Of a stretch of 64,000 bases of DNA, positions 8,917-36,206 are shown piece after piece (within the stretch, counting starts at the first letter, position 1; each line of letters starts with the position of its first letter). The stretch comes from Myxococcales bacterium (GTDB lineage: Bacteria > Myxococcota > Kuafuiibacteriia > Kuafuiibacteriales > Kuafuiibacteriaceae): the NCBI GenBank assembly GCA_019634385.1, contig JAHQVK010000123.1:1142-65141 (forward strand). The letters run 5' to 3'. The translations under genes were made by a program, and so were the position numbers. The notes under the pieces are model-generated. The model was not told where the DNA came from. It saw only the letters and a program-made list of their open reading frames with translations, and ran no database searches.

Positions 8917-9104
8917 TAGGGCGTATCTTTAAACTCTGGCTGGGGAGATGACGCCGTATCCCGCGTTTGTGAAGGGTCGGCCCCCAGAGGAAGGGTACTG
9001 GATCTGCCGGGCCGAAGAGCCCGAAGGGTGGCGAAGCCACCGACCCCTCACATATGTGGGAAACAAGTCAGGACGCGGTCCGGAGGTTAAAGACACACCC
9101 TACA
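8917..9104. mobile_element. Family-A palindromic repeat element (MITE-like), copy A1
   Basis: It starts ctagggcgtatctttaaactctgg and ends ccggaggttaaagacacaccctac, so the two ends are inverted repeats of each other. The interior is an imperfect foldback. It is homologous to copies at 12635, 23023, 31383, 40743, 41222 and 48296. Confidence 0.85.
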
Positions 9105-10389
9105 CTAGTGCACGAAATGACGCTCTTGCTGTATCTATAGTGCGTTCTATATCTTCGGGGGTATGGGTAAAGGATACAAACCACGCCTCGTAACCCGAAG
9201 GAGGTAGATAGATACCCCGTTCTAGCATCGCATGGAACCATTGACCGAAGCGATTGTGGTCGCAGGCGGCAACGTCCTGGAAGTTGTGTACCGGACTGCC
9301 ATCGTTAAAGAACAGGGTGAGCATGGAACCGACCCGCTGAATACATGCGGTAATGCCGGCATCTTTGAGGGCTTCTTGCAGGCCATCTTCAAGGCTTTGG
9401 CAGGTCTTTTCGAGCTGATCGTACAGGTTTTGGTTTTCGAGACTCTTGAGGGTGGCTGTCCCTGCGGCTACGGCACATGGGTTCCCGCTTAGGGTTCCTG
9501 CCTGGTAAACGGGGCCAACGGGAGCTACCATGTCCATGATCTCGGCTCGTCCACCATACCCCCCCATGGGTAGGCCACCTCCAATAATTTTTCCGAAGCA
9601 AGTGAGGTCTGGGGTGATGCCTAAGAGCCCCTGAGCGCATTGGGGATGAACTCGGAAACCGGTCATGACTTCGTCGAAAATGAGAACAACCCCATGTTGG
9701 GTGCAGAGTTCCCTGAGGCGAGCATGGTAATTGGGTGATGGTTTAATGACCCCCATATTCCCGGATATGGGTTCGATGATTGCGCAGGCGAGCTCCGAAC
9801 CGCGCTCAGCGAAGAGCTCTTCGAGCTTGTCTATGTTGTTGTATGGCAGTGTGAGGGTTTGTTGAGCGAAGCTAGCGGGAACACCGGGGGAGTCTGGCAA
9901 GCCAAAGGTAGCTACGCCAGAGCCTGCTTTGACGAGCAGATAATCGGCGTGGCCGTGGTAGCAGCCTTCAAACTTTAGGATTGTTTCTCGTTGTGTATAT
10001 CCGCGTGCTACGCGGATCGCACTCATGCAGGCTTCGGTTCCGCTAGAAGTTAGGCGTAAGCGATCGACCGATGGCATTCGCTCCACTACCAGCTCCGCCA
10101 GTTTCACTTCGCCTTCTGTCGGGGCTCCGAAGCTTGAGCTACGTTTGATGGCATTGGTGGCTGCCTCTACGACATCCGGCGCAGCATGCCCAAGGATCAT
10201 TGGACCCCAGGATCCGACGTAGTCGATGAAACGATTGCCATCAACGTCCCATATATAGGCGCCTTCAGCTCGACTGATAAATGGGGGGGTTCCGCCAACA
10301 GCTCGGAACGCGCGAACTGGACTGTTGACGCCTCCGGGGATCACAGTTTGAGCGCGACGCATCAATTCAGCGGACCGTTCGGTTTTCAT
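9100..10389 (-). CDS. hemL: Glutamate-1-semialdehyde 2,1-aminomutase
   Basis: It carries ..VIPGGVNSPVRAFRAVGG.PPFI..G.YIWDVDGN.FIDYVGSWGP.ILGHA.., a class III aminotransferase and a HemL signature. The start is placed at MKTERS (10389). The stop codon lies inside the A1 terminus. Confidence 0.9.
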   Translation of the reverse strand: MKTERSAELMRRAQTVIPGGVNSPVRAFRAVGGTPPFISRAEGAYIWDVDGNRFIDYVGSWGPMILGHAAPDVVEAATNAIKRSSSFGAPTEGEVKLAELVVERMPSVDRLRLTSSGTEACMSAIRVARGYTQRETILKFEGCYHGHADYLLVKAGSGVATFGLPDSPGVPASFAQQTLTLPYNNIDKLEELFAERGSELACAIIEPISGNMGVIKPSPNYHARLRELCTQHGVVLIFDEVMTGFRVHPQCAQGLLGITPDLTCFGKIIGGGLPMGGYGGRAEIMDMVAPVGPVYQAGTLSGNPCAVAAGTATLKSLENQNLYDQLEKTCQSLEDGLQEALKDAGITACIQRVGSMLTLFFNDGSPVHNFQDVAACDHNRFGQWFHAMLERGIYLPPSGYEAWFVSFTHTPEDIERTIDTARASFRALV

Positions 10390-10514
10390 GGAGCACCAGC
10401 CTACTGCGTATTGGGGCCAGCGCGAAAGGAACAAGCGTTCGGAAGCGGCTTGGCGACGCATTCTTAGAGAAGGTAACGGACTCCTAAACGAAAATCTGGC
10501 AACTTAGATGAAAC

Positions 10515-11150
10515 ATGGCTGTTAGTACTGACCATGAACCGCAATCGGTCCAGGCCCTGGTGAACGCGGTTCGGTCTTTCCATAGCCGGGGGTGGACCCC
10601 GGCCACGAGCTCCAATTTTTCTTATCGTCCGGAGACCTCCACGCAATTTTGGGTTTCCCAATCTGGGGTGGACAAAGCGTACTTTGGGCCTGAACACCTG
10701 ATGTTGGTGGATTCACAAGGTGTGGCTGTGCCGCCGGAGAGCCGTCGTCCGTCAGCGGAAACAGGCCTTCATGCAATGATCTACGCGATGCGCCCACAGG
10801 CCCGCGCGGTCATCCATGTACATGCACCCCATTCGGTAGCTTATGCTCGTCTCTACCTGGTTGATGGAGCCGTTTGTATACAGGGTTGGGAACTGCAGAA
10901 AGGGTTACAAGGCGTGCATAGCCACACCGACGAAATATCGATCCCGGTGTATGAAAATTCCCAGGACATAGCGGCGCTCTCCTCGTATATCGGACCGCGG
11001 TTAGCAGCGGATCAAAGCAGTCATGCCTTTTTGTTAGCAGGGCATGGACTCTATGCATTTGGTTCCTCGGTTGCGGAAGCAAAACGACATGTGGAAGTGG
11101 TAGAGGGACTTTTAGAACAAGATTATCTTTGGAGGACACTCACCAAATGA
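10515..11150 (+). CDS. mtnB: Methylthioribulose-1-phosphate dehydratase (class II aldolase/adducin fold)
   Basis: It carries ..GWTPATSSNFSYR.. and HVHAPH metal-binding motifs. It lies upstream of mtnD and mtnC. Confidence 0.75.
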   Translation: MAVSTDHEPQSVQALVNAVRSFHSRGWTPATSSNFSYRPETSTQFWVSQSGVDKAYFGPEHLMLVDSQGVAVPPESRRPSAETGLHAMIYAMRPQARAVIHVHAPHSVAYARLYLVDGAVCIQGWELQKGLQGVHSHTDEISIPVYENSQDIAALSSYIGPRLAADQSSHAFLLAGHGLYAFGSSVAEAKRHVEVVEGLLEQDYLWRTLTK

Positions 11151-11695
11151 CGGTGCTAGAAATTCCCGGTAAAGACCGTTCGACAACTGATGAAGGCGAG
11201 ATTCGCCAATTTCTCAACGAGCGAGGCATTCTATTTGAGCGATGGGCCGCCAGTGTGCAACTAAGCTCGGATGCTTCACCCGCAGATGTTTTGGATGCCT
11301 ACGCGCACGAGCTTAAGCCTTACATGGAGGCTCATGGCTATCTGACCGCTGACGTTATTCGGATCCTCCCGACTATGGATGGACTCGATGCTGTTCGGGC
11401 GAAGTTCTTGGACGAGCATACTCACAGTGAGGATGAGATCCGATTCTTCGTTGAGGGGAAGGGTGCGTTTTGGTTTAACCTAGCCCGTACGCCCGCTGAT
11501 GAGGTCTTTTGTCTGATATGTGAGGCCGGCGATTTTATTAGCGTCCCTGCTGGGTTTAGGCACTGGTTTGATATGGGTGCGAGTCCGAAAGTAACCGCGA
11601 TACGCGTCTTCTCGAATAAAGAGGGATGGGTACCCCAGTACACTGACTCTGGTATCAGTCATCAATATAACAAACCTTATGAGGTCTCCCTTTGA
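11129..11695 (+). CDS. mtnD: Acireductone dioxygenase (ARD, cupin)
   Basis: It carries ..HTHSEDEIRFFVEGKGAFWF.., an ARD cupin motif. It overlaps mtnB by 22 nt. Confidence 0.75.
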   Translation: MEDTHQMTVLEIPGKDRSTTDEGEIRQFLNERGILFERWAASVQLSSDASPADVLDAYAHELKPYMEAHGYLTADVIRILPTMDGLDAVRAKFLDEHTHSEDEIRFFVEGKGAFWFNLARTPADEVFCLICEAGDFISVPAGFRHWFDMGASPKVTAIRVFSNKEGWVPQYTDSGISHQYNKPYEVSL

Positions 11696-12432
11696 TACCT
11701 ATTCCTGTCCGTGATGTATTGCTTGATATCGAGGGTACTACCTCCTCGATAAGCTTTGTTCACCGGGTGTTATTTCCTTATGCTCGGACCCATCTGCCAG
11801 CATTCATTCAAGAACACCACGGTGATCCCGCAGTGCAACGGGCGCTAGCTGCTGCTCAGGCGTCCCTTCGAGTTGACGGATGGCCATGTGATAGCCTTTC
11901 GGACCAGATAGGAGGCTTACTAAGATATATTGATGAGGATCGAAAAGACACTGGACTGAAAACGTTGCAAGGTATGTTGTGGCGCGTCGGCTACGAGCGG
12001 CAAGACTACCAGGGGCATATGTATTCCGATGTTTTACCAACCCTAAAACGGTGGCGTTCATATGGCTTGCGAGTATCCATCTATAGCTCTGGTTCTGTAG
12101 AGGCTCAAAAACTTATCTTTGGGTACTCCGAGTCAGGAGACCTGACCTCTTATATTCACAGTTATTTTGATACCCGAGTGGGACACAAACGGGAAGTTGG
12201 TTCATATCGAGCGATTGCCTTCGCCTTAGCTCGAGAGTCCTCGGAAATACTATTCCTGTCGGATACTCAAGAAGAGTTGTCCGCAGCGGCTGAGGCTGGA
12301 TTTTATACACTTCAGGTGGTCCGGGATGCCTCAACGGATGAGCTTGGTCCGCCAATGTTGGGAGCACCAGGGGCTTCACCCGCACCGATGGTGACTTCGA
12401 TCGCTCAGGCGGCAGAACTTTTGCGGGTCTGA
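11692..12432 (+). CDS. mtnC: Enolase-phosphatase E1 (HAD family)
   Basis: The N-terminus ..LLDIEGTTSSISFV.. is the HAD motif I DxxGT arrangement typical of MtnC. It overlaps mtnD by 4 nt. Confidence 0.75.
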   Translation: MIPIPVRDVLLDIEGTTSSISFVHRVLFPYARTHLPAFIQEHHGDPAVQRALAAAQASLRVDGWPCDSLSDQIGGLLRYIDEDRKDTGLKTLQGMLWRVGYERQDYQGHMYSDVLPTLKRWRSYGLRVSIYSSGSVEAQKLIFGYSESGDLTSYIHSYFDTRVGHKREVGSYRAIAFALARESSEILFLSDTQEELSAAAEAGFYTLQVVRDASTDELGPPMLGAPGASPAPMVTSIAQAAELLRV

Positions 12433-12866: not shown

Positions 12867-14774
12867 TCAGCGACCAACGGAGTACTGTACAACCGGTTTG
12901 TCCTCGGCAAGTTCAACGGTACCTTTGTAGCGTACGTTACCATCTTCAAGCAGTTCGATCGGCAAGGATCCGCTGCCTCGACGTCGCTCGACCGCAACTG
13001 GAGTTGGATGAAGTAGGCGAACACCGTCCAGGCGAACCTCCATACCAGAAGGTACTGACCTAATCAGGACCAGACCTAGTCCTGGTACGGCTTCTCTGCG
13101 GTTGCTAAGCTCCATCTGGCGGAAGATTTTTTCTTGAGATGCTGCTCGAGCTCGTAGGCGGCCGACAACGGCACCAAATATGATGAAGCCAATCAAAATA
13201 CTAGCAACTCGCAAGGCGGCCTGTCGTCGCTGACGGTTTACACCGGACGGTTTTGTGTGACCGGGACGTAGGTGTCTCCGCCCAATGGGCGCCTTGTTGG
13301 TGAGCTGTTTCTTTTTTGGGGGTGCTGGCATGGCCGCAACCTTTGGTGTTGGTTTCTTTTTATCTGCATTTTCTGCTTTTTTGGCTACGGGAACGGGTAC
13401 CTTTTTCTCTTCCGGGGCTTTGGGTGATGCCTTGGCGGGGGGGGGCGGGCTCTTTACTTTGGGCGCGGGTGGCGTTGTGGGTTTCTCAGCCTTGGGGGAT
13501 TTCTCTTCCTTGGCGGGTTTTCCTGGTGTGGGAGCTGGATCTTTCGGTTTTGCCGGTTTAGGTGGGTTTGAGGGGGCGTTGTTGACCGGTTGATCAGCTA
13601 GAGATGGTGCTCGTTTGGTGCTACCGCGCGGTGGCTTTTTTGAGGGTGAACCCTTTGGTGTGAGTGAGGGTTTTTCAGACTCGCCCACACTCTGCATTTC
13701 CAGAACACCTGTACCACCACTTGCCTTAGCTGGAGTTTCGTTAGGCTTGAACAGACCACAAATGAACTCAGTGAGATCTGCACGGGTAACGAGGGCATTT
13801 TCAGCGCGGACCCAGTCCCCTAATATTTTGTCGAGCTCAAGAGCGGTCTGCGGCCGGGTTTTCTTCTCCTTGGAGAGTATCTTGAGGACGATTTTTTCCA
13901 GTGACTTTGGTACATTAGCGTTGACACTTGTCGGGGGGCTAACCTCCGCATTGCGCATAAGATTCAGGGTCGAGAAATCACTTGAGCCGGCAAAACAGCG
14001 CTCACCGACCAACATTTCATAAAGGACAATACCCGTATTGAAGATATCGGAACGTGCATCAACGGGCTGACCGCGTGCTTGTTCTGGGGACATGTACCCA
14101 TATTTGCCCTTGAGAATTCCGACTGCGGTTTGACTAACGATCGACGAGGCCTTCGCGATACCGAAGTCTACAATTTTTACTTCACCAACGTAACTAACCA
14201 GCACATTGTGCGGGCTCATGTCTCGATGCGTGATGTTTAAAGGCGCACCATCTCGGTCTGTTCGGGTGTGTGCGTAGGCTAAACCTTGGCAAACCTCTCT
14301 TGTGATGTGTACTGCGATCTCTGGTGGAATTTCCCTGCCGGCTAGTTGGGTCGCACGAATGACGTCAGACAGGTCTTTGCCTTCCACAAACTCCATGACG
14401 ATGAAGTATTCACCAACATCTGAAACACAAAGATCGTGTACTTGCACGATATTGGCACAATTCAGCGATGCGGCTAACTTCGCCTCATTGATGAACATCG
14501 TGATGAACGACTCGTCTTCGGTGAGGTGCGGCAAAATCTTTTTGACGCACACTTCCTTTTCGAAGCCCTGGAGGCCAGTGGTCCTCGCTCGATACACTTC
14601 GGCCATTCCACCCTTGGCGATCATTTCGAGAATTTCGAACTTCTTGACACTCAACTTCCTAAGTATCGGTAGAGATGCGTTTCGGGACAAGCATTCTGAA
14701 CCCTCTTCCCCAATCAGATGTTGCCGTCTAGCATACGCGTGTCGGCCATGACGGAATCTACGCCGAGCGAGCAA
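12867..14774 (-). CDS. Membrane-anchored Ser/Thr protein kinase (kinase domain, Pro/Lys-rich linker, TM helix, C-terminal PEGA-like domain)
   Basis: It has a Gly loop IAKGGMAEVY, VCVKK and DFGIA. The catalytic loop is HRDMSPHN. The low-complexity linker reads PKPAKPKDPAPTPGKPAKEEKSPKAEK... and the TM helix reads ALRVASILIGFIIFGAVVG. Start codon uncertain. Confidence 0.85.
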   Translation of the reverse strand: MLARRRFRHGRHAYARRQHLIGEEGSECLSRNASLPILRKLSVKKFEILEMIAKGGMAEVYRARTTGLQGFEKEVCVKKILPHLTEDESFITMFINEAKLAASLNCANIVQVHDLCVSDVGEYFIVMEFVEGKDLSDVIRATQLAGREIPPEIAVHITREVCQGLAYAHTRTDRDGAPLNITHRDMSPHNVLVSYVGEVKIVDFGIAKASSIVSQTAVGILKGKYGYMSPEQARGQPVDARSDIFNTGIVLYEMLVGERCFAGSSDFSTLNLMRNAEVSPPTSVNANVPKSLEKIVLKILSKEKKTRPQTALELDKILGDWVRAENALVTRADLTEFICGLFKPNETPAKASGGTGVLEMQSVGESEKPSLTPKGSPSKKPPRGSTKRAPSLADQPVNNAPSNPPKPAKPKDPAPTPGKPAKEEKSPKAEKPTTPPAPKVKSPPPPAKASPKAPEEKKVPVPVAKKAENADKKKPTPKVAAMPAPPKKKQLTNKAPIGRRHLRPGHTKPSGVNRQRRQAALRVASILIGFIIFGAVVGRLRARAASQEKIFRQMELSNRREAVPGLGLVLIRSVPSGMEVRLDGVRLLHPTPVAVERRRGSGSLPIELLEDGNVRYKGTVELAEDKPVVQYSVGR

Positions 14775-17700
14775 GAGATCGCTGCCTTACGAGCACAAGT
14801 GAACGCCGATACGAGATCGGAGGCGTTTGTTGATTTGGCTAAAGCGTTAAACGCGCAGGGCAAACACGAGGAAGCGGCCCAGATCGCTAACCAGGGTCTT
14901 TTGTCTCATCCTGACTTGGTTGAGGGAAGGATAGTCCTGGCGATTGCCGAATCCCGGCGAGGTCGAGTCAAAGAGGCGTTAGAGCAGATTCAGCGCGCGC
15001 TTCTTATCGATCAGAATAATGCGGTCGCGCTGGGGCTCATGGGAGAAATACTGCTCGATAGGGGCCTCGCTAAACGAGCAGCACAGTTCCTAGCGCACGC
15101 GGTGAAACTTGAGTCTGGCAACGAAGGGTTTAGAGAGCTTCTGGCCCGCGCCCGCCAAGCTATGGCGGATGTCAGTAAAGATGAAACTGGTGGTCCTCGG
15201 GTAGTAGCTAACAAGGTCAACCCACTGGGTTTGAGCTCCATCCCTAGTGAGGATAGCCCTTGGCCCTTGGAGGAAGCACAAACGGTGTTCGCCGCCAAAG
15301 CTGCGGATTCGGCATCGAATGGTCCTGCCGATGTGCCAGTTGCGCACCTTGCTGCCATACCAGAGGTTAGCAAGCAAGTGGTCGGTGGCGCCCAACAGGG
15401 GCTAGCCTCGCTGGTGTCAGGGGATGAAATTGCTGTTGATCACGCTGATGACGAACCGACGAAGTTTACGTCGGCGGTTCCAAAAAGGCGAGGGAAACTG
15501 GGAGGGAGCGCAGCTGAACTCTCGTTGATGATCAGCACGGGCAATGATCGAAGTAAGTCTAGCGTGCCCCCCCCGCAGGCTCCAAGTAAGCTGGCCGCGG
15601 AAGGATCAGGGCCAGCGAAGCCCAAAGCAAAGCCCAATGGGGTATCGGCTGGGCCTAAAACCCCTTCAGGTGAAGCGGGTGTCGGAAAGCCTCCTTCCCC
15701 AGCGAAGGGTCGGCCAGCGGTTGCAAAGGCGCCTGCAGTCCCGAGCAAGTCAAAGGCCGCAAAGGTCCCGCCACCCCCTCCGAAGCCAGAAGTTTCAGAT
15801 ACTTCTGCGTCTCCAAGCAAAGCAGGAGAGGCAAAGACGTCTGCAGGCAAAGCAGGCGCGGCAAAGACGTCTGCAGGCAAAGCAGGCGCGGCAAAAACGC
15901 CTGCAGGCAAAGCAGGCGCGGCAAAAACGCCTGCAGGCAAAGCAGGCGCGGCAAAGACGCCTGCAGGCAAAGCAGGCGCGGCAAAAACGCCTCTTGATCC
16001 TAGTAAATCGGGAGGGGCAAAAGAGCTCCCCAGTCCCGGCAAGGCGGCGGCTGCGAAACCGCCAGCAGCTTCTGCCAAGCCTGGGATTGCGGAGGTGCCA
16101 CCGGTCTCGAAAGCCCCCCCGCCGACACCGAGTAAACCTCCGGCTCCGACAGGAGATGAGGCTAAATCAACCCCAAAAAATAGTAGCGCTAAACCTAGTG
16201 CGGCTCCTGGACCCAAAATGAATGCTGTTGCTCAAGAAAATAAGCGCTCTCAAGACGAACCAGCCTCCGTAAATGGATTTGGACCAGTTGCTACGCGAAT
16301 GATCGATGACGCGCTCTTCGCGATCTTAGGTACCCCGCGGGAGGAGCTGGATAAACAACCGGCTCCAGCGGCTCCCGCAGAGGCGGCGCCGCTCGCTGGA
16401 GGGGCGCATATACTCAAGCCTCGAGTAGTGAGAACCAGCGCTAAACTGGGGTTTTGGGCACGGGTTGCGGGGGGGGTAGTCTTGTGTTCAAGCGCATTCG
16501 GTTTGGGGTATGCGGTTGCATTAGCTCCGGGTGCAGCCTCACCGGAGGTTGTCCGGGAAGAGATTAAAGGGGTTGCTGCAGAACTTGAAAGAGGCGGCTT
16601 GGCAGCCCTCCGAACCGCTGAGGAGCGAGTTCAGGTGCTGATTGAGTCGAATCCCAGCATTTCTCCCCTAATGAATGGCGTTCTAGCTGAGACCTTAGCG
16701 CGACGCTATGCGCGCTTCGGGCGCTCTGAGGAGTTGAGAACGAAGGCTATCGATGCACTTGAAGCCACAGGAGACGGGTACGTTAGTTTGGAGAAGACTG
16801 TGGCCCAAGTCCTGCTCTCTACGAGTACACAAGACCTTGCGCAGCTGGACAAGCAACTAGAGCTGTCGCTGAAAAGCTATGCCGACTCGCCCAAGGCGTG
16901 GGTGGCTCGGGCGGAGATCGCCCACCGTTCTGGAGACGCGGATGCAGCTATTTCTCATCTAACACAAGCTCGATCCATTCATCCCCAGCATCGGCAGACG
17001 CTCCTTGAAACCGCTCGATGGTTAGCGAGAGAGGGCGCGTTCGCATCCAGCTTAGAAACTTATGCCTTGCTGCAAAGTAACTCCGACCTCGATGTGGAGG
17101 TGGCGATCGAGCGATATCTGTTGGGATGGTCTACCGACGCTGACTCGGCCCATTCTGAGGCGGTTACTTTGCTAGCTGGGTTGGTACGGGAGACGATACC
17201 AGAAGTAGCACCAGACGAAGTCGGCCGAGCTGCGTTTGCTTTTGCTCTTGGGCACTTGTGGGAAGGTCGGATTGAAGAGGCGAATGCAAGCTTGCGCCAA
17301 GCCTCTCGGGCTTATCAACAAAGTGCAGCCTATCAGCAGATGATTGGACGCGTGTTTCTCGCGCTGGGGGAAGTTAAAGGGGCGGAGGCGTGCTTTACAA
17401 GAGCGACTGATGTGGAGCCGGATAGTGCCGAGTTGTGGATGGATAAAGCCCGTGCTCGATTTGCTCGGGCGCTCAAACTCCGACCGAGCCCAACAGCACT
17501 CGAGCGTCAGCTAGCGCGTGTTAGGGCCAACAAGTCCAAGGAGCGGTTGATGCTTCCCCTTGGGGAGGTGAGGGTACGCCCAACAGAGTTTGAGCTCGTG
17601 GAGGTTACGCTCGATCCGGCAGTCTTTAGGGAAGAAGACTATCTGCCGCTAAAAGAAGCCACTGCCCAAGAGGTATCGTTTGAGCAGGCTATGAAATCGC

Positions 17701-18491
17701 TGGTTGCATCAGCGGTGGCGCAGAAGGCCGTTGATTCGGGTGATCTCTCTAAGGCGAGACGTGTTGTAAAGCGGATGGCTGACAGAGATAATCAGATGTC
17801 ATCGATCGCGATAGCTAAGGGGCAATTGCTGCTGGCTGAGGGCAATTCGGATCAGGCGGTTCAACTCTTGGAATCGGCGGTAGATGGTGAGTCGTCGAGT
17901 ATATCTACCCTGGTGGCTTTGGCGCGAGCCCAAGTGGCGGCGGGCAATCTTAGGGGGGCCTTTGATGCCTACGAGCGGTTTTTTGATGCGGGCGGAAAGT
18001 CGACGGTTGCTCGCTTAGAATATGCTCGGCTGCAGAATGATAAAGGTGATCTTGAAGATGCGTTGGAGACCCTGGACCTTCTAGATACGGAGCAGCCAGA
18101 TAATGTTGCTAGCATGGTGCTACGTGCGGAATTGCATCTCGAACAAGATAAATATATTAAAGCACAAGCAACCATTCAGAAGGCGATAGAAGTGGATGCT
18201 AGGCTAGTAACTGGCCGTGCCCCTGAAGGGATTGATGAGCTGTCCCCCGAGTTTATTATGCAGATGGGTCGCATTGTCTTAAAAGATGATCGAAAGAAGG
18301 GCATGCGTTTGCTGAGGAACGCTGTTGAGCGCCCCGGGGCTCCGCCTAGTGTGCACTTCTTCTTAGGCAAGGCGTTGATGGCAAAGCGCAAAACTCGGCG
18401 AGCTGGGCGGCGATCGCTTCAGAAATATTTGGCTCTTGAACCAAGAGGATCTCATGCCGTTGAGGCTAAAAGACTAAGGCGACGAAGATGA
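14718..18491 (+). CDS. Large TPR-repeat protein (1257 aa) with a Pro/Ala/Lys-rich low-complexity region and a 10-aa tandem repeat
   Basis: There are many TPR units at both ends (..LGLMGEILLDRGLAKRAAQFLAHAVKLE.., ..AQATIQKAIEVDARL..). The central region is (AGKAGAAKTP)n. The true start may be MTEST at 14748. Confidence 0.65.
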   Translation: MLPSSIRVSAMTESTPSEQEIAALRAQVNADTRSEAFVDLAKALNAQGKHEEAAQIANQGLLSHPDLVEGRIVLAIAESRRGRVKEALEQIQRALLIDQNNAVALGLMGEILLDRGLAKRAAQFLAHAVKLESGNEGFRELLARARQAMADVSKDETGGPRVVANKVNPLGLSSIPSEDSPWPLEEAQTVFAAKAADSASNGPADVPVAHLAAIPEVSKQVVGGAQQGLASLVSGDEIAVDHADDEPTKFTSAVPKRRGKLGGSAAELSLMISTGNDRSKSSVPPPQAPSKLAAEGSGPAKPKAKPNGVSAGPKTPSGEAGVGKPPSPAKGRPAVAKAPAVPSKSKAAKVPPPPPKPEVSDTSASPSKAGEAKTSAGKAGAAKTSAGKAGAAKTPAGKAGAAKTPAGKAGAAKTPAGKAGAAKTPLDPSKSGGAKELPSPGKAAAAKPPAASAKPGIAEVPPVSKAPPPTPSKPPAPTGDEAKSTPKNSSAKPSAAPGPKMNAVAQENKRSQDEPASVNGFGPVATRMIDDALFAILGTPREELDKQPAPAAPAEAAPLAGGAHILKPRVVRTSAKLGFWARVAGGVVLCSSAFGLGYAVALAPGAASPEVVREEIKGVAAELERGGLAALRTAEERVQVLIESNPSISPLMNGVLAETLARRYARFGRSEELRTKAIDALEATGDGYVSLEKTVAQVLLSTSTQDLAQLDKQLELSLKSYADSPKAWVARAEIAHRSGDADAAISHLTQARSIHPQHRQTLLETARWLAREGAFASSLETYALLQSNSDLDVEVAIERYLLGWSTDADSAHSEAVTLLAGLVRETIPEVAPDEVGRAAFAFALGHLWEGRIEEANASLRQASRAYQQSAAYQQMIGRVFLALGEVKGAEACFTRATDVEPDSAELWMDKARARFARALKLRPSPTALERQLARVRANKSKERLMLPLGEVRVRPTEFELVEVTLDPAVFREEDYLPLKEATAQEVSFEQAMKSLVASAVAQKAVDSGDLSKARRVVKRMADRDNQMSSIAIAKGQLLLAEGNSDQAVQLLESAVDGESSSISTLVALARAQVAAGNLRGAFDAYERFFDAGGKSTVARLEYARLQNDKGDLEDALETLDLLDTEQPDNVASMVLRAELHLEQDKYIKAQATIQKAIEVDARLVTGRAPEGIDELSPEFIMQMGRIVLKDDRKKGMRLLRNAVERPGAPPSVHFFLGKALMAKRKTRRAGRRSLQKYLALEPRGSHAVEAKRLRRRR
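15811..15990. repeat. 30-bp tandem repeat, 5 perfect/near-perfect units plus one degenerate unit (ctgcaggcaaagcaggcgcggcaaaRacgY)
   Basis: Units at 15841, 15871, 15901, 15931 and 15961 with a degenerate copy at 15811. They encode (S/P)AGKAGAAKT and differ only at wobble positions. Confidence 0.9.
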
Positions 18492-20623
18492 GTGAAGCAC
18501 CTCAACTCTACCTAGAGCAGTCTCAGGATAATCTGATAGGAGAAACCGACCCTAAGGTTGCGATCCGTCAAATGCCACTATTCGAGGGGCTTACCGCGAG
18601 TGAAGTGGACAAGATTGCGAGTATATCGGAAATAGTTCACCGACCTCAGGATCGTATTGTTGCTCGGGCCGAGCCGGCGGATGCCGCTTATTGTTTTGTG
18701 CTCCGAGGTCAGGTGGCTTTTGCAGAATTTGCCAAAGGTAAAGTTCCTGAAGAACCCAAGAACCTCAAAAAGAGAATTACACCGGTCATGGAGCTTTGTG
18801 AGCGGGTAGTTGCCATATTTGATGTGGGGGATGTCTTCAAGAACGACCATGTGGCTACATCGACCGAGGAAAGCAGCGTTGAATATGATATGGCGCTGTT
18901 TACTTGTGTAAATATTGTCCTTCTTCAGGTTAAGCAAAAAGATCTAGATGCTGCCCTGAAGGGACTGTCTCGAATTAAAGAGCGAATTGATAGTTTGTCG
19001 GAAGTCTCTTTCTATCGGCAGACCTTACTCAAGGTGGATGGCCGATCGGATATCCTCGATTTTTATGTCAAAAACGGGTTTGAGTACGCCGGCGCAATCA
19101 AAGTTATTCAAACAGATAAATGTATAGATTGTGACGAATGTATCAAGGCTTGTGAAGATCGCCACGGGATATCCCGCATCGAGCGTTTTGGACCACGAGT
19201 AGGTTTGCTGCAGTTCACACGGAACTGTCGGAGCTGTCTGGATGCGCGGTGCATTGAAGTCTGCAACTTTGAGGCAATTGGTTATGACTCGAGAGTCCCG
19301 GAACGGGAGGTTGTTGTTTATGACAATTGCGTCGGTTGCATGAAGTGCTCTAAGGCGTGCCCCCACGATGCGATACAGATGGTGGAGGTCGAGGAACCGG
19401 AAGATCTCGATCTTGTGGGTTTGGTAGAGGGGCAGAAAGATAGGCCCGCGACTCGTATAGCGAAAGGTGAAGAAGCTCCGCCGGTAGCTAAGAAAAAAAA
19501 GAAGCCTAAGCGTATCGCTAACAAATGCGACCATTGTTTTGGGTACAGCGATATGGCCTGTATCTCAGCCTGCCCGACCGCGGCCATTATTCAGATAGAT
19601 CCTCGAGCGTTATTCCGTAGAGATGGTGGTCTCATAGAACGTTCCGATCGGTACTTCGAGCAGGCACCATTTGAGCAAGGATGGTCCCAAACTACGCGAA
19701 CTCAGGGTGTACGCTTGATGCACGGGACATTTGGGCTTGCAACCCTCGGTGTTCTGTTTGCCATCGTTGAGTATACGCTACGAGTTGTAGCGCCGGAGTG
19801 GAGTCTTTACCGAGGCCTAATTGCACTTACCCAAAGTGATAAGATGGCCGCCGACCTGGATCTGAGTATGAGTCCGGTTTTCGGTTTTCTTCGGTGGTTG
19901 GGTTATCTGGGGGGAGGTATGATGGTGGTGTCGGCCATGTATACTGTTCGCCTAAATGTGCCATTACTACGGCGGATGGGTGGCGCAAGAACTTGGTTTG
20001 ACCTTCATGTGGTATTTGGGCTCGCTGGCCCTATCCTAGGACTTCTTCATACAAACTTTGCCATAACTGACATTGCTGCCCGCCCTATGGTTGTGAGTCT
20101 GTGGTGGATGGTCTTTGCGATCGTTTTGTCTGGACTGTTGGGACGTTTTTTCTATACCGCGATACCTCGGCTGGAAGCAGCAGCAGAGCGTGCCCGCACA
20201 GAGCTGGATCGGGGTATCAAGAGCGTTGCTGATGAGTGGTCTTCAATGACCGTGAGTGTCAATGTGCTCGCCCAGTTTATGAAAGCACAGGAAAAAACCG
20301 GCCCAGCGGCTGCCAAGCTAGAAGAATTGAGTGCCGGGCGTGCCTTGATTGAACTTCTCAAGAACGAATACCAGCATATTCGTAGTCGAAGAGCTCTGCG
20401 GAAGAGTACAATCGGAAAAATTAAGAACGATGAGCTACGGAATACAACTCTCCAGCTTGTTCGTCAGCGGGCGGATGTGGACCGAAGGGTGGCCCTATAC
20501 TCTGTCACTAAACGGATGCTTGGTTGGTGGCGTAGTATCCACATAGCGGTGACCGTGTTTATGTTTGTCCTCCTTATCTTCCATGTTGCTATCTCGCTAT
20601 ATGCCACGGGTCTGGGAGTATAA
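18488..20623 (+). CDS. Fusion protein: cyclic-nucleotide-binding domain + multi-[4Fe-4S] ferredoxin domain + C-terminal polytopic His-rich membrane domain
   Basis: The N-terminus ..FEGLTASEVDKIASISEIVHRPQDRIVARAEPADAAYCFVLRGQV.. is a cNMP-binding beta-roll. Cys motifs are CIDCDECIKAC, CRSCLDARCIEVC, CVGCMKCSKACP and CDHCFGYSDMACISACP. At least 5 predicted TM helices carry conserved His. The start overlaps the TPR gene stop (ATGA). Confidence 0.7.
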   Translation: MSEAPQLYLEQSQDNLIGETDPKVAIRQMPLFEGLTASEVDKIASISEIVHRPQDRIVARAEPADAAYCFVLRGQVAFAEFAKGKVPEEPKNLKKRITPVMELCERVVAIFDVGDVFKNDHVATSTEESSVEYDMALFTCVNIVLLQVKQKDLDAALKGLSRIKERIDSLSEVSFYRQTLLKVDGRSDILDFYVKNGFEYAGAIKVIQTDKCIDCDECIKACEDRHGISRIERFGPRVGLLQFTRNCRSCLDARCIEVCNFEAIGYDSRVPEREVVVYDNCVGCMKCSKACPHDAIQMVEVEEPEDLDLVGLVEGQKDRPATRIAKGEEAPPVAKKKKKPKRIANKCDHCFGYSDMACISACPTAAIIQIDPRALFRRDGGLIERSDRYFEQAPFEQGWSQTTRTQGVRLMHGTFGLATLGVLFAIVEYTLRVVAPEWSLYRGLIALTQSDKMAADLDLSMSPVFGFLRWLGYLGGGMMVVSAMYTVRLNVPLLRRMGGARTWFDLHVVFGLAGPILGLLHTNFAITDIAARPMVVSLWWMVFAIVLSGLLGRFFYTAIPRLEAAAERARTELDRGIKSVADEWSSMTVSVNVLAQFMKAQEKTGPAAAKLEELSAGRALIELLKNEYQHIRSRRALRKSTIGKIKNDELRNTTLQLVRQRADVDRRVALYSVTKRMLGWWRSIHIAVTVFMFVLLIFHVAISLYATGLGV

Positions 20624-21657: not shown

Positions 21658-22908
21658 TCAGCCCCTGGCTGCGTGCATTTTGAGAGCTTCTTCAAGAGCA
21701 GCGATCGTAAAAATTTGAGGCAGAAGGTGCTTGTTACCGGTGCTATCAATGAGCATCACTAATGGAATTCCTGACCTCCCGCTTGCTTCGATCCACTGGG
21801 TCATCACTTCGTCGGCATTGGTGTAGTCGGCTTGCATAGGGATGATCCTCAATTGCTCAAGAACAGTATGGATGCGGGGTGTATCTATAACGGTGGCCTC
21901 GAGGGCTTTACACGCGGTGCACCAGTCGGCGGTAAAATCCAATAGGATAGGTTGTTGATTTGCGGTGGCGGTCGCAACCAATTTTGGATCAAACGGGATC
22001 CATTGAATTTCCCCGTTCTCAATGATGGGGCCACTGAGGTTAGATTCATTGAACTGATGGCGAATGGGCGCCTCAAGTTCTACAAACTTGGCCCAAAAAA
22101 TAAGGCTGCCAAGAATTGCTACGGTGCGTACTGTCCACCGGCGGCCCATGGGATGAACGGGGCTACCAAAGCGCTGTATAGCCCACAATAAAATGGTGAG
22201 AACGAGTAAGAACATCAGCACCCGGTTGGCGCTATGCGGTGTAAGCTGGGCTTGGAGAGAACCAAAGAGCCAGACCGCAGCGCCGACAAGGGTGAAACCC
22301 ATAAGGTACTTGAAGTCGTTCATCCATGTTCCGGGTTGAGGCAGAAGACGAATAAGCGCAGGTACAAAACTTAGACAAAGAAACGGAAAAGCGAGTCCTA
22401 TTGCTATGGCCGCAAATAAAGATAGCGTTTGTATAGCGGTAGCCTCAGTACCCATCGCAAAAGCTGCTGCTGTGCCCAGAAACGGAGCGGTACAAGGCAT
22501 AGACATTAAAGCAGCGAGCATTCCGTTGCCGACCGAGCCAAAAATACCATCAGGGACTTTGGAGGTTCGAACGTTGAACGCGATTTCAAAAACGCCCAAC
22601 GCGTTCAATCCAAAGACATAAAGGGCAATAACTAAGGTGGCAACAAACCCTGGGTATTGAAATTGCATACCCCAGCCGATGGTTTTGCCCGACGCACGAA
22701 TAGCAATAACCATCGTTGCGAAGATGCTAAATACCAGCACTGTTCCGACCGCATACGCGATGCCATGGATCCGAGCTTTCTCCGGATGTGCACGAAGAGC
22801 GTCAACGATGTGAAACGCCTTTAGGGTAAGCACCGGCAACACACACGGCATGATGTTGAGAATCACGCCACCGATGAAGGCGAAGGCGAGGTATTGCAAG
22901 AAGTCCAA
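21658..22908 (-). CDS. dsbD: Thiol:disulfide interchange protein (DsbD/CcdA family: membrane core + C-terminal thioredoxin domain)
   Basis: The membrane core has Cys pairs (..IMPCVLPV.., ..MPCTAPF..). The C-terminal thioredoxin motif is LLDFTADWCTACK. Confidence 0.8.
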   Translation of the reverse strand: MDFLQYLAFAFIGGVILNIMPCVLPVLTLKAFHIVDALRAHPEKARIHGIAYAVGTVLVFSIFATMVIAIRASGKTIGWGMQFQYPGFVATLVIALYVFGLNALGVFEIAFNVRTSKVPDGIFGSVGNGMLAALMSMPCTAPFLGTAAAFAMGTEATAIQTLSLFAAIAIGLAFPFLCLSFVPALIRLLPQPGTWMNDFKYLMGFTLVGAAVWLFGSLQAQLTPHSANRVLMFLLVLTILLWAIQRFGSPVHPMGRRWTVRTVAILGSLIFWAKFVELEAPIRHQFNESNLSGPIIENGEIQWIPFDPKLVATATANQQPILLDFTADWCTACKALEATVIDTPRIHTVLEQLRIIPMQADYTNADEVMTQWIEASGRSGIPLVMLIDSTGNKHLLPQIFTIAALEEALKMHAARG

Positions 22909-36134: not shown

Positions 36135-36206
36135 CTGCGGAGCTGACGCCGTATCCCGGATGTGTGAGGGGTTGGCGCCGGAGGGAGGGGTAAAGACAGG
36201 CCTTAG
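36135..36206. mobile_element. Family-A element, internally deleted copy A4 (about 72 bp)
   Basis: gcggagctgacgccgtatcccggatgtgtgaggggttgg joins directly to cgccggagggaggggtaaagacaggccttag. Its terminal tta (reverse complement taa) is the stop codon of the downstream gene. Confidence 0.7.

Follow-up and report, generated by a model that had tools for sequence, protein, structure and literature searches.

A predicted transmembrane electron conduit that joins a CNB-like domain, a four-cluster ferredoxin and a putative di-haem cytochrome b in one Myxococcota protein

The gene and its neighbours

The window analysed here is a 64,000-nucleotide stretch of DNA from an uncultured lineage of the Myxococcota. 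Its forward strand holds a gene for a 711-aa protein (18488..20623), recognised from the open reading frame list and from homologues, in which a CNB-like domain is followed by a ferredoxin with four predicted [4Fe-4S] sites and by a five-helix membrane module of the 'conserved inner membrane protein' (IMP) type, a putative di-haem cytochrome b. The identical MAG protein in the databases (P0001) is named only '4Fe-4S dicluster domain-containing protein', and no NCBIfam equivalog matches the protein at its cut-off. A homologue search returned about 72 near-full-length homologues at 48–69% identity and a second tier at 25–31% identity. The three-part build reported in a preliminary description of this DNA is present and is kept across homologues. 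In an alignment of 32 homologues with identity to the query down to 28% (A1), the invariant ligand residues are 16 Cys and exactly four His. The first ~400 residues lack a signal peptide and are placed in the cytoplasm by the positive-inside rule.

The gene is translationally coupled to the one upstream, as had been noted: its ATG (18488–18490) overlaps the TGA (18489–18491) of a gene for a 1257-aa TPR protein (14718..18491, forward strand; open reading frame list, Pfam and TM prediction). This protein has N-terminal TPRs, a Pro/Ala/Lys-rich region, one TM helix (aa 583–601) and a C-terminal TPR region that is predicted to be periplasmic. On the reverse strand lies a divergent gene for a Ser/Thr protein kinase with one TM helix and a C-terminal PEGA domain (12867..14774; TM prediction and Pfam, with Pkinase at 1e-38 and a weak PEGA match). 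Downstream, an EamA/DMT open reading frame follows after 44 nt, in agreement with the DMT transporter described earlier.

As suggested, the TPR protein and the kinase do co-occur with the target, within the window's own clade only. A TPR homologue lies immediately upstream of the target gene in 13/13 close-tier loci, and the kinase is divergent from the TPR gene in 10 of these 13. Within about 10 kb, no haem c gene was found in the window or in the close-tier loci (0/13), nor was an Fe-S flavoprotein gene found in the window or in any of the 13.

The CNB-like domain and the ferredoxin

The N-terminal domain (aa ~25–185; 18560..19042, forward strand) adopts a CNB/CAP fold in an AF2 model with a pLDDT of ~85. 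The top 50 Foldseek matches in the PDB are all CNB domains (prob 1.0), and hhalign to canonical CNB domains gives 91% and an E of 1e-6. Pfam cNMP_binding (PF00027) has no match in the 711-aa protein at E<=0.1, and in a PDB profile search only the first ~60 residues align, with E >= 0.02. The domain is thus a CNB homologue that is recognisable only by fold and profile–profile comparison, and the 'cNMP-binding domain' of the preliminary description stands as regards the fold; the Pfam match and the cassette residues are missing. In the hhalign alignment, the phosphate-binding cassette (PBC) is degenerate: FGE is replaced by F-x-N and PR[ST]A by x-x-[DE]-M, with Tyr116 at the Arg position, which is variable across the clade.

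The preliminary description went further and proposed a nucleotide-gated electron-transfer module, or a redox sensor with a cNMP input, a reading on which cAMP or cGMP at the N-terminal domain would switch electron flow or signalling, and it had itself named these cassette residues as the point on which that idea should be judged. Gating by cAMP or cGMP is not supported by the sequence, because the PBC Gly-Glu and Arg-Ser/Thr are replaced and Pfam cNMP_binding is undetected. A canonical PBC was found in 0/27 fused representatives, and KCNH CNBHD domains, known for their lack of nucleotide binding, are among the best matches by fold. The idea does draw on a genuine CNB homology, on the conserved kinase, which makes a regulatory link plausible, and on a set of unfused relatives. 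Three of these (P0085, P0087 and P0089) match Pfam cNMP_binding and have a canonical PBC, e.g., FGELAALGRTPRTASV, and P0085 and P0088 have genes for a stand-alone IMP and for multihaem cytochromes as neighbours. These relatives, P0085 and P0087–P0089, are soluble tandem-CNB proteins with a four-cluster ferredoxin; they share with the window protein the four Cys motifs and the junction ..F[LY]V..G....C..CD.C..AC, and the related P0086 carries the JGI name 'CRP-like cAMP-binding protein/Fe-S-cluster-containing hydrogenase component 2'. However, they have two CNB domains and a separate membrane gene. In the window protein a single CNB-like domain shares one chain with the IMP and, unlike in P0085, P0087 and P0089, the PBC is missing. 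A cyclic nucleotide switch is very improbable for the window protein. The domain most likely has a docking or regulatory role, or binds a ligand other than a cyclic nucleotide.

The ferredoxin domain (aa 206–375; 19103..19612, forward strand) would lie in the cytoplasm and is of the HycB/HydN type, as judged from Pfam, from HycB in the PDB and from its invariant Cys. Several Fer4 families score over their cut-offs, and HycB (PDB 7z0s_B) aligns to aa 208–375 at an E of 6e-8. Its four Cys motifs run in order along the forward strand as C212-x2-C-x2-C-x3-C222 (C212/215/218/222; 19121..19153), C247-x2-C-x4-C-x3-C259 (C247/250/255/259; 19226..19264), C281-x2-C-x2-C-x3-C291-P (C281/284/287/291; 19328..19363) and C347-x2-C-x7-C-x3-C362-P (C347/350/358/362; 19526..19576). 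All 16 Cys are invariant in the 32 homologues of A1, and they constitute four predicted HycB/HydN-type [4Fe-4S] sites, at the upper end of the three to four motifs first counted. AF2 models the ferredoxin poorly (pLDDT <50).

An acidic and then Lys-rich stretch (aa 300–343, with ...KKKKKPKR; 19385..19516, forward strand) had been read as a linker to the membrane domain. It sits instead inside the ferredoxin, between Cys motifs 3 and 4, and is length-variable in A1. The same insertion point is occupied in HycB, and in the relative P0126 it holds a whole Pyr_redox_3 FAD/NAD(P)H domain. The sixteen Cys, the four motifs, their order and the insertion point are shared with HycB, HydN, NarH, FdnH, NrfC and DmsB, although the window protein lacks the molybdopterin or hydrogenase catalytic partner of such four-cluster respiratory subunits.

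The membrane module

The membrane module (aa 408–711; 19709..20620, forward strand) has five TM helices and a cytoplasmic helical insert. Its AF2 model reaches a pLDDT of 80.5 and a pTM of 0.70, and its topology follows from hydropathy and the positive-inside rule; the range of five to six helices given earlier narrows to five. TM3 (19994..20062) carries W503-x3-H507-x13-H521, a pattern that is invariant in A1 and supported by a motif count, and TM5 (20528..20602) carries W681-x3-H685-x13-H699, which is invariant. The two helices are parallel, each with two His at the same H-x13-H spacing, and H507 and H685 are the proposed ligands of an inner haem and H521 and H699 those of an outer one. TM4 (20093..20161) carries the conserved S548-G549-x-x-G552 (SGxxG). 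Between TM4 and TM5, AF2 and hydropathy place the cytoplasmic insert (aa 559–680, with 24 K/R; 20162..20527). Of the His-bearing helices quoted in the preliminary description, those with H507/H521 and H685/H699 are borne out, and H412 in 'MHGTFGLATL' is unconserved.

An exhaustive search with a profile of the module found 3040 representatives, mostly stand-alone proteins of ~290 aa that retain the TM4–TM5 insert (the profile match spans positions ~60–311). Across 64 diverse members with 19–27% identity to the query, the four His, W681, G549 and G552 are invariant, and W503 and S548 are >=90% conserved. This is the signature of the IMP of PCC3 and PCC4 porin–cytochrome clusters, in which TM3 and TM5 of the five TM helices carry WX3HX13H and TM4 carries SGXXG (He et al. 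2017, PMC5566968). The match to the signature of this ~300-aa module is exact; the likeness lies in the signature, and membership in the same family is suggested by stand-alone IMPs encoded beside multihaem cytochromes. Weak but consistent Pfam affinities, all below gathering thresholds, point to a di-haem b: DUF4405 in 15/15 and 20/64 members (best E 1e-5 to 1e-6), Ferric_reduct in 10/15 and 6/64, and Ni_hydr_CYTB. Haem b binding has been demonstrated experimentally for a DUF4405 protein (PMC11334425). The invariant H-x13-H pairs, the IMP signature, these affinities and the multihaem cytochrome and Fe-S flavoprotein operons of relatives make the module a well-supported putative bis-haem b transmembrane electron-transfer module, as had been proposed.

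The proposed arrangement of two bis-His haems on TM3 and TM5, with His 13 apart, is also found in the ferric-reductase superfamily (NOX, FRE and MsrQ/YedZ; PF01794) and in DUF4405/PepSY-like/FezC proteins (PMC3591440, PMC11334425), where a cytoplasmic redox domain likewise supplies electrons through the membrane. The window protein could be a terminal reductase of the NOX/FRE/MsrQ kind that works with no multihaem cytochrome. Its outer haem would act directly on a small periplasmic substrate, either a ferric chelate or O2 with superoxide as the product, or would feed a periplasmic enzyme encoded elsewhere. The canonical four-His geometry (PMC3591440) and the weak Ferric_reduct matches favour this, as do the missing cytochrome c partner in 13/13 close-tier loci and P0126, whose FAD/NAD(P)H domain gives it the look of a rearranged NOX. 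The resemblance to a ferric-reductase fold extends only so far, however. Foldseek of the membrane domain against solved structures gave nothing significant (best E 0.13), and hhalign with E. coli MsrQ and YodB was negative. The window protein has five helices where the superfamily has six, a 120-aa cytoplasmic helical stretch divides its TM4 from TM5, and its input comes from a 4x[4Fe-4S] ferredoxin in place of FAD/NADPH or FMN. NOX proteins have an extra His four residues past the outer His of TM3 (PMC3591440); the window protein has Ala there, at position 525, and no candidate periplasmic enzyme is conserved beside the gene. Such a reductase is an unlikely role.

Relatives and the path of electrons

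Relatives outside the window's clade have a different setting. In 46/60 distant-tier loci (Kofleriaceae), an open reading frame with 15–29 CxxCH lies just downstream of the fused homologue; this cytochrome carries a signal peptide and is counted as a 25–29-haem cytochrome c, and the gene after it encodes an outer-membrane-barrel-like protein with a beta-barrel-like terminus. A Fer4+Pyr_redox_3 flavoprotein is encoded directly upstream of the homologue in at least six loci. Stand-alone IMPs adjoin multihaem cytochromes in 3/3 sampled contexts, and there are unfused operons with CNB-ferredoxin, IMP and multihaem cytochrome c as separate genes. A response-regulator gene is conserved beside type-A homologues.

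The window protein is probably an inner-membrane electron conduit in a single polypeptide. The [4Fe-4S] clusters would act as a wire that connects the membrane face with a donor or acceptor in the cytoplasm. A cytoplasm-proximal haem b would be held by H507 and H685 and a periplasm-proximal one by H521 and H699, giving electrons a route through the membrane like that in ferric-reductase domains of the NOX/FRE type. What can be said of partners is borrowed from relatives at 25–31% identity.

A cofactor set of a four-cluster ferredoxin and a di-haem b is that of NarHI and FdnHI, with NarI and FdnI as the di-haem b subunits; the cytochrome b of the window protein is of another family than these two and is covalently fused to the ferredoxin. 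By analogy with NarH–NarI, HdrDE and DsrMK, the haems b could act on membrane quinol or quinone, and the ferredoxin would exchange electrons between the quinone pool and a cytoplasmic partner instead of serving a periplasmic protein. The periplasmic cytochrome partner is absent nearby in the window's clade, two invariant residues within or close to the helices, Glu428 and Tyr485, might form part of a quinone site, and the IMP itself was proposed to be a quinone-active cytochrome b and not a cytoplasm-to-periplasm wire (He et al. 2017, PMC5566968). However, no recognisable quinone-site motif was found in the window protein, and in the wider family the module consistently adjoins a flavoprotein of the NAD(P)H type and multihaem cytochromes c that are secreted, which fits a through-membrane relay. 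Quinone coupling is best regarded as a minor possibility, and it is compatible with conduction through the membrane.

The neighbourhood in the window's clade also invites a reading as a transmembrane redox sensor that works with the kinase and a TPR scaffold, the redox state of the Fe-S clusters and haems serving as a signal and not for bulk electron flow. The kinase, TPR and target trio is conserved, with TPR and target translationally coupled, and the cytochrome and flavoprotein partners are lost; a Ser/Thr-rich motif (ADxW-x-SMT-x-S-x-NV) is conserved in the cytoplasmic insert, and the response regulator of the type-A loci would suit such a role. Yet all ligands for through-conduction are invariant, which a pure sensor would not need, and adjacency of a kinase is weak evidence because Ser/Thr kinases are very numerous in the Myxococcota. 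A pure sensor is improbable. Control or scaffolding of the conduit by the TPR protein and the kinase is likely.

The pairing of Fe-S protein and IMP is already known bioinformatically. In PCC4 subgroup II, an Fe-S (pfam13247) gene lies directly upstream of the IMP gene, and in one genome the two are annotated as a single gene (PMC5566968); calling the combination not a textbook one was fair with this reservation from 2017. PCC3 also has a 21–27-haem periplasmic cytochrome, comparable with the 25–29-haem cytochrome c and barrel-like protein of the distant-tier loci. The window protein differs in joining ferredoxin and IMP in one chain with an N-terminal CNB-like domain, in its host (the Fe(II)-oxidising Proteobacteria of those clusters are replaced here by an uncultured lineage of the Myxococcota) and in having TPR and kinase genes but no porin or cytochrome genes nearby.

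Similar logic is seen in unrelated protein families. In Hmc and Tmc of sulfate reducers, a membrane cytochrome b joins periplasmic multihaem cytochromes c to a cytoplasmic Fe-S protein, through HdrD-like CCG Fe-S subunits, and Geobacter CbcL, CbcBA and ImcH link periplasmic multihaem cytochromes c with the electron-transport chain, with the quinone pool as source and c-type haems of their own.

In the window's clade no cytochrome or flavoprotein partner lies near the gene, and its conserved neighbours are the single-pass TPR protein and the receptor-type kinase. Across the family, because the module, fused or split, is encoded in related loci between a 2x[4Fe-4S]/FAD/NAD(P)H oxidoreductase and a secreted 25–29-haem cytochrome c with a barrel-like protein, its role would be to connect a pool of reductant in the cytoplasm (probably NAD(P)H) with periplasmic or extracellular multihaem cytochromes, and the window protein is an unusual fused form of this pairing.

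Architecture, CNB-like domain, and ferredoxin

The 711-aa protein encoded at 18488-20623 (+) joins a domain with the cyclic-nucleotide-binding (CNB) fold, a ferredoxin domain with 16 invariant cysteines, and a module of five transmembrane (TM) helices; the three-part build given in the preliminary description holds with small corrections. A protein from a Myxococcales MAG (P0001) is 100% identical and carries at NCBI only the name 4Fe-4S dicluster domain-containing protein. About 72 near-full-length homologs with 48-69% identity (the close tier) come from uncultured Myxococcota, and a second, distant tier with 25-31% identity is found in MAGs of the Kofleriaceae, Haliangiales, and Nannocystineae, with two copies in some genomes. 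The presence of homologs in two tiers indicates that the architecture is real and conserved, and not a chance arrangement of motifs. Literature searches for this tri-domain architecture found no description of it. As first described, the start codon overlaps the stop codon of an upstream gene for a 1257-aa TPR protein (ATGA), and an EamA (DMT) transporter gene follows, beginning 44 nt downstream. Promoter and terminator scans around the operon gave the same counts as shuffled sequence.

The N-terminal domain has the eight-stranded beta-barrel and flanking helices of the CNB fold. In an AF2 model (pLDDT ~85 in this region), its top 50 Foldseek matches in the PDB are all CNB domains (E ~1e-5, probability 1.0), and they include CAP, PKG, SthK, and the CNBHD of KCNH channels, a domain type that does not bind nucleotide. 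The family profile also aligns with canonical CNB domains in hhalign (probability 91%, E 1e-6). The target has no Pfam match to PF00027 (cNMP_binding) at E<=0.1, and precomputed PF00027 assignments are absent for all of the proteins P0001-P0084. The phosphate-binding cassette, Gly-Glu...Arg-[Ser/Thr]-Ala, is missing, with Lys-Asn and Tyr116-Asp-Met at the aligned sites. Opposite the canonical F-G-E...P-R-[S/T]-A, the hhalign consensus of the family reads F-x-N...x-x-[D/E]-M; the position of the cassette arginine, Tyr116 in the target, is variable within the clade, and a canonical cassette occurs in 0 of 27 fused representatives. The domain is a predicted CNB homolog in which the residues for clamping the cyclic phosphate have been lost. 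The cNMP input originally proposed therefore lacks support here: there is no PF00027 match, and loss of the cassette residues is the very outcome that the proposal had named in advance as counting against it. A docking or regulatory function is probable for the CNB-like domain.

The sixteen cysteines of the ferredoxin domain form four CxxCxxCxxxC-like motifs in the canonical order of 4x[4Fe-4S] proteins of the HycB/HydN/NrfC type (C212/215/218/222; C247/250/255/259; C281/284/287/291-P; C347/350/358/362-P). All are invariant in an alignment of 32 homologs, three of which have 28-30% identity. Residues 208-375 align with HycB of formate hydrogenlyase (PDB 7z0s_B, E 6e-8) and also with HycB3/4. 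The Lys-rich stretch, earlier read as a linker leading to the membrane part, is actually an insertion between Cys motifs 3 and 4, and HycB also has an insertion at this point. Fer4_9, Fer4_6, Fer4_7, and Fer4_10 of Pfam score above their cut-offs, PF13247 (Fer4_11) falls below (19.4 vs 26.2), and every NCBIfam equivalog score for the whole protein is far under its cut-off.

The membrane module

The membrane module spans aa 408-711. Hydropathy and an AF2 model of aa 395-711 (pLDDT 80.5, pTM 0.70) show five TM helices, with TM4 and TM5 separated by a helical insert of 122 residues. Exactly four histidines are invariant in the alignment of 32 homologs. They lie in W503-x3-H507-x13-H521 on TM3 and W681-x3-H685-x13-H699 on TM5. 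Of the histidines reported earlier within the helices, H412 of TM1 is not conserved. TM4 carries S548-G549-L-L-G552 (SGxxG), in which both glycines are invariant and the serine is at least 90% conserved. In a second alignment of 64 diverse members with 19-27% identity to the query, the four histidines, W681, Y485, and the two SGxxG glycines remain invariant, and W503 and S548 are at least 90% conserved. Both WX3HX13H motifs and SGxxG are present in 112 of 137 representatives.

These features match a published signature. He et al. (PMC5566968) described a conserved protein of the inner membrane (IMP) from the PCC3 and PCC4 porin-cytochrome clusters, with ~300 aa, five TM helices, SGXXG in TM4, and WX3HX13H in both TM3 and TM5; they proposed that it holds two hemes b in the manner of ferric reductase domains. 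Directly 5' of the IMP gene in PCC4 subgroup II is an Fe-S (pfam13247) gene, and in one genome the pair is annotated as a single gene (PMC5566968). The target has the ~300-aa five-TM module, both WX3HX13H motifs, and SGXXG. The match is to the signature and not to a named IMP sequence; kinship was computed against unnamed IMPs that adjoin multiheme cytochromes (hhalign 96.6-98.4%). Literature searches found no experimental work on IMP itself.

An exhaustive search of 1.84 billion representatives with a profile of aa 395-711 found 3040 relatives, 1713 of them at E<=1e-10. Most are stand-alone proteins of ~290 aa (285-300 aa), cytoplasmic insert included, and the stand-alone IMPs returned only the database name hypothetical protein. 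In the 150 best representatives, IMP stands alone in 113, is joined to a ferredoxin in 9, and forms CNB-like + ferredoxin + IMP in 27.

Three bis-His di-heme cytochrome b families were compared with the module, and affinity to each was weak, with all scores below gathering: DUF4405 (15/15 and 20/64 members), Ferric_reduct (10/15 and 6/64), and Ni_hydr_CYTB (3/15 and 3/64). DUF4405 (PF14358) reaches 19.2 bits on the query against a cut-off of 26.7, with a best member E of 1e-5 to 1.5e-6, and the best E for Ferric_reduct (PF01794) among members is 5e-4. The four heme-ligating-type histidines, two on TM3 and two on TM5 and separated by 12-13 residues, are placed as PF01794 and PF14358 call for. 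NOX/FRE domains share this geometry; in them, the first His of either helix carries the inner heme and the second carries the outer heme (PMC3591440). A DUF4405 protein, distantly related to the module, has been shown experimentally to bind heme b (PMC11334425). No relation of the module to a characterized PF01794 or PF14358 member and no fold match to a solved structure was found. A PDB sequence search with the membrane-domain profile gave chance matches only, and Foldseek of the model against the PDB gave none that was significant, the top ones being unrelated helical ABC transporters and cytochrome b561 appearing at E 0.93. NCBIfam returned no family at cut-off for the 64 members, and hhalign gave no relation to MsrQ or YodB of E. 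coli. The module is presumed to be a putative di-heme cytochrome b of the IMP type.

The target has no signal peptide, the TM2-3 loop has 4 K/R and 0 D/E, and the TM4-5 insert has 24 K/R. This distribution of charge places the CNB-like and Fe-S domains, by prediction, in the cytoplasm, with H507 and H685 predicted close to the cytoplasmic side of the membrane and H521 and H699 close to its periplasmic side. Invariant ligand sets for four predicted [4Fe-4S] clusters and two predicted bis-His hemes are shown by the alignments. The preliminary description had read the protein as a nucleotide-gated transmembrane electron-transfer module: the transmembrane di-heme/Fe-S part survives on the invariant ligands and the IMP signature, and the gating does not, the cassette residues being lost.

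Within the TM4-TM5 insert, on the cytoplasmic side, aa 579-601 (20222-20290 in the window) read ADxW-x-SMT-x-S-x-NV-x-x-F-x-KAQEK, a motif strongly conserved in the window's clade. With its Ser and Thr residues, it might be phosphorylated, or used for docking, by the neighboring kinase.

Partners in the window's clade and in relatives

In PCC3 and PCC4, IMP is clustered with a porin and multiheme cytochromes c, which is not the case in the window or in the 13 close-tier loci. No ORF in the 64-kb window contains two or more CxxCH. A multiheme cytochrome c gene was found in 0 of the 13 loci, where the selected ORFs lack CxxCH and open frames within 3.5 kb downstream hold at most two. Instead, a TPR protein gene lies directly upstream of the target homolog in 13/13 loci and a divergently transcribed Ser/Thr kinase in 10/13, so the co-occurrence that had been proposed as a check is found within this clade.

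The TPR protein (14718-18491) has one hydrophobic segment (aa 583-601). Basic residues precede it, and the N-terminal TPRs and a long Pro/Ala/Lys-rich region are therefore probably cytoplasmic; the C-terminal TPR region (~650 aa) is probably periplasmic. The kinase (12867-14774) has a single TM helix and probably follows the same membrane plan, with its PEGA domain outside. Six tandem AGKAGAAKT[S/P] units occupy aa ~290-500 of the TPR protein (~nt 15585-16220) within the Pro/Ala/Lys-rich region, and a similar linker precedes the TM helix and the PEGA domain of the kinase; the two appear to be single-pass membrane proteins built alike. A TPR_CcmH_CycH match on the TPR protein (45 bits vs a cut-off of 42), a possible hint of a cytochrome c chaperone, was set aside because TPR models cross-match freely. 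Two apparent fusions of the TPR protein to target homologs were also rejected: the 1361-aa ORF of locus L001 results from a spurious extension upstream, in a different frame, and in protein P0081 the tail is frameshifted.

Beyond the kinase, a HemL-like class-III aminotransferase gene occurs in 6/13 close-tier loci and at 9100-10461 (-) in the window. Its only Pfam label is Aminotran_3, and we take the window's copy to serve heme-precursor synthesis. Three methionine-salvage-like genes, encoding a class II aldolase, an ARD dioxygenase, and a third protein with no Pfam match, lie between it and the kinase (10515-12432, +). Downstream, a DsbD_TM + thioredoxin protein of the type that supplies periplasmic reductant in cytochrome c biogenesis is encoded 1 kb from the target (21658-22908, -); the EamA and DsbD-like genes are not conserved beside the target in related loci. 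A thioredoxin-like DUF255 protein with one CxxCH (36203-38596, -) is likewise not conserved near the target in relatives. At the window's edge, positions 1-2000 have a GC content of 0.636 vs ~0.53 elsewhere and encode a PIN-domain (VapC-like) protein (118-519, +) and an Mrr-type restriction endonuclease (646-1704, -); this segment may be foreign or island-like.

The distant tier has other partners. Downstream sequence was sufficient in 60 loci, and in 46 of them the homolog is closely followed by an ORF on the same strand that has 15-29 CxxCH (25-29 in 44 of the 46). The ORF has a signal peptide and Cytochrome_C7, c3, and MtrC/MtrF-like domains in Pfam, and the next gene encodes a signal peptide and an outer-membrane-barrel-like C terminus (...YFRASYRF). 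Upstream, in divergent orientation, are genes for a response regulator and a ~220-aa unknown protein. In the Kofleriaceae and Haliangiales (loci L014-L080; L048 12108-16345, for example) the order is response regulator (-), ~220-aa unknown (-), fused homolog (+), 25-29-heme cytochrome c (+), and ~560-aa barrel-like protein (+). The heme count agrees with the 21-27 hemes of the PCC3 periplasmic cytochrome (PMC9900912), and the arrangement is a predicted PCC3-like conduit in Myxococcota; no such conduit or multiheme system of this phylum is described in the literature searched. The remaining 14 of the 60 loci have no downstream cytochrome, and in at least 6 of the 14 a same-strand gene for a 2x[4Fe-4S] + Pyr_redox_3 flavoprotein lies directly upstream. 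In one protein, P0126 (1008 aa; locus L086 1095-4121), an entire FAD/NAD(P)H Pyr_redox_3 domain sits at the ferredoxin insertion site between Cys motifs 3 and 4, ahead of IMP. This is in effect a rearranged NOX-like enzyme, with Fe-S clusters predicted between flavin and hemes.

Unfused versions are also found. Stand-alone IMPs adjoin 660-710-aa multiheme cytochromes in 3/3 sampled contexts, one of which also has the flavoprotein. Four soluble proteins (P0085, P0087, P0088, and P0089) combine two CNB domains with the same four-cluster ferredoxin type as the target and share with it the junction motif ..F[LY]V..G....C..CD.C..AC. Three of them (P0085, P0087, and P0089) have a canonical cassette, for example FGELAALGRTPRTASV. 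The operons of P0085 and P0088 (L087 4931-10708; L089 4882-13744) run from a cytochrome c554-like gene through the CNB-ferredoxin gene, its cassette canonical in P0085, and a ~275-aa protein to 711-849-aa multiheme cytochromes c. The ~275-aa protein is IMP (hhalign 96.6% and 98.4%). The existence of operons with a CNB-ferredoxin protein and a separate IMP marks the target as the fused form of a two-subunit module, and the operons themselves are a candidate cyclic-nucleotide-controlled electron conduit. P0086 has neither IMP nor cytochromes in its context, so not every CNB-ferredoxin protein is part of the system.

Possible electron route and its implications

In the relatives, the predicted module recurs with a flavoprotein and with secreted multiheme cytochromes. 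Electrons would pass from a cytoplasmic donor along an Fe-S wire to the inner heme (H507/H685), and from there to the outer heme (H521/H699) and a periplasmic partner; the reverse direction would also be possible. In relatives, this path would connect NAD(P)H with a cytochrome that spans the periplasm and with an outer-membrane barrel. IMP has so far been assumed to be a quinone-active cytochrome b, with a role for quinones proposed by He et al. (PMC5566968). Taken together, the fused, split, and flavoprotein-inserted versions put a four-cluster ferredoxin on the cytoplasmic face of IMP along with an NAD(P)H-type flavoprotein, which speaks for a direct route from cytoplasm to periplasm, in place of a quinone-linked one or alongside it.

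A fuller reading is speculative, and we think it improbable that all of its linked parts hold together. In it, IMP would be the membrane half of a quinone-independent wire from a cytoplasmic NAD(P)H/Fe-S flavoprotein chain to periplasm-spanning multiheme cytochromes, and cyclic nucleotides would genuinely control the unfused form by way of the canonical CNB domains of its ferredoxin subunit. In the window's Myxococcota clade the wire, cut off from cytochromes c, would have been combined with a membrane TPR scaffold and a receptor Ser/Thr kinase to give a transmembrane device for redox signaling or for kinase-regulated electron export. The conserved kinase and TPR protein do suggest clade-specific control or scaffolding.

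The target belongs to a kind of protein that bioinformatic work predicted in 2017, and is a new fused form of it, CNB-like + ferredoxin + IMP, set beside TPR and kinase genes in Myxococcota. The window's gene can thus be annotated more informatively than as a 4Fe-4S dicluster domain-containing protein, and it should carry no cNMP label. One 711-aa polypeptide with all six presumed cofactors makes a convenient subject for expression work, spectroscopy, and cryo-EM. Three points seem to be new: the ferredoxin's position on the cytoplasmic side, a flavoprotein as partner, and canonical CNB domains on an unfused subunit. At stake is the path that electrons take through the inner membrane in large porin-cytochrome systems, PCC3/PCC4 and their relatives, where the role of IMP has so far been a bioinformatic guess, and the canonical CNB domains on unfused ferredoxin subunits suggest that some extracellular-electron-transfer conduits may be under second-messenger control.
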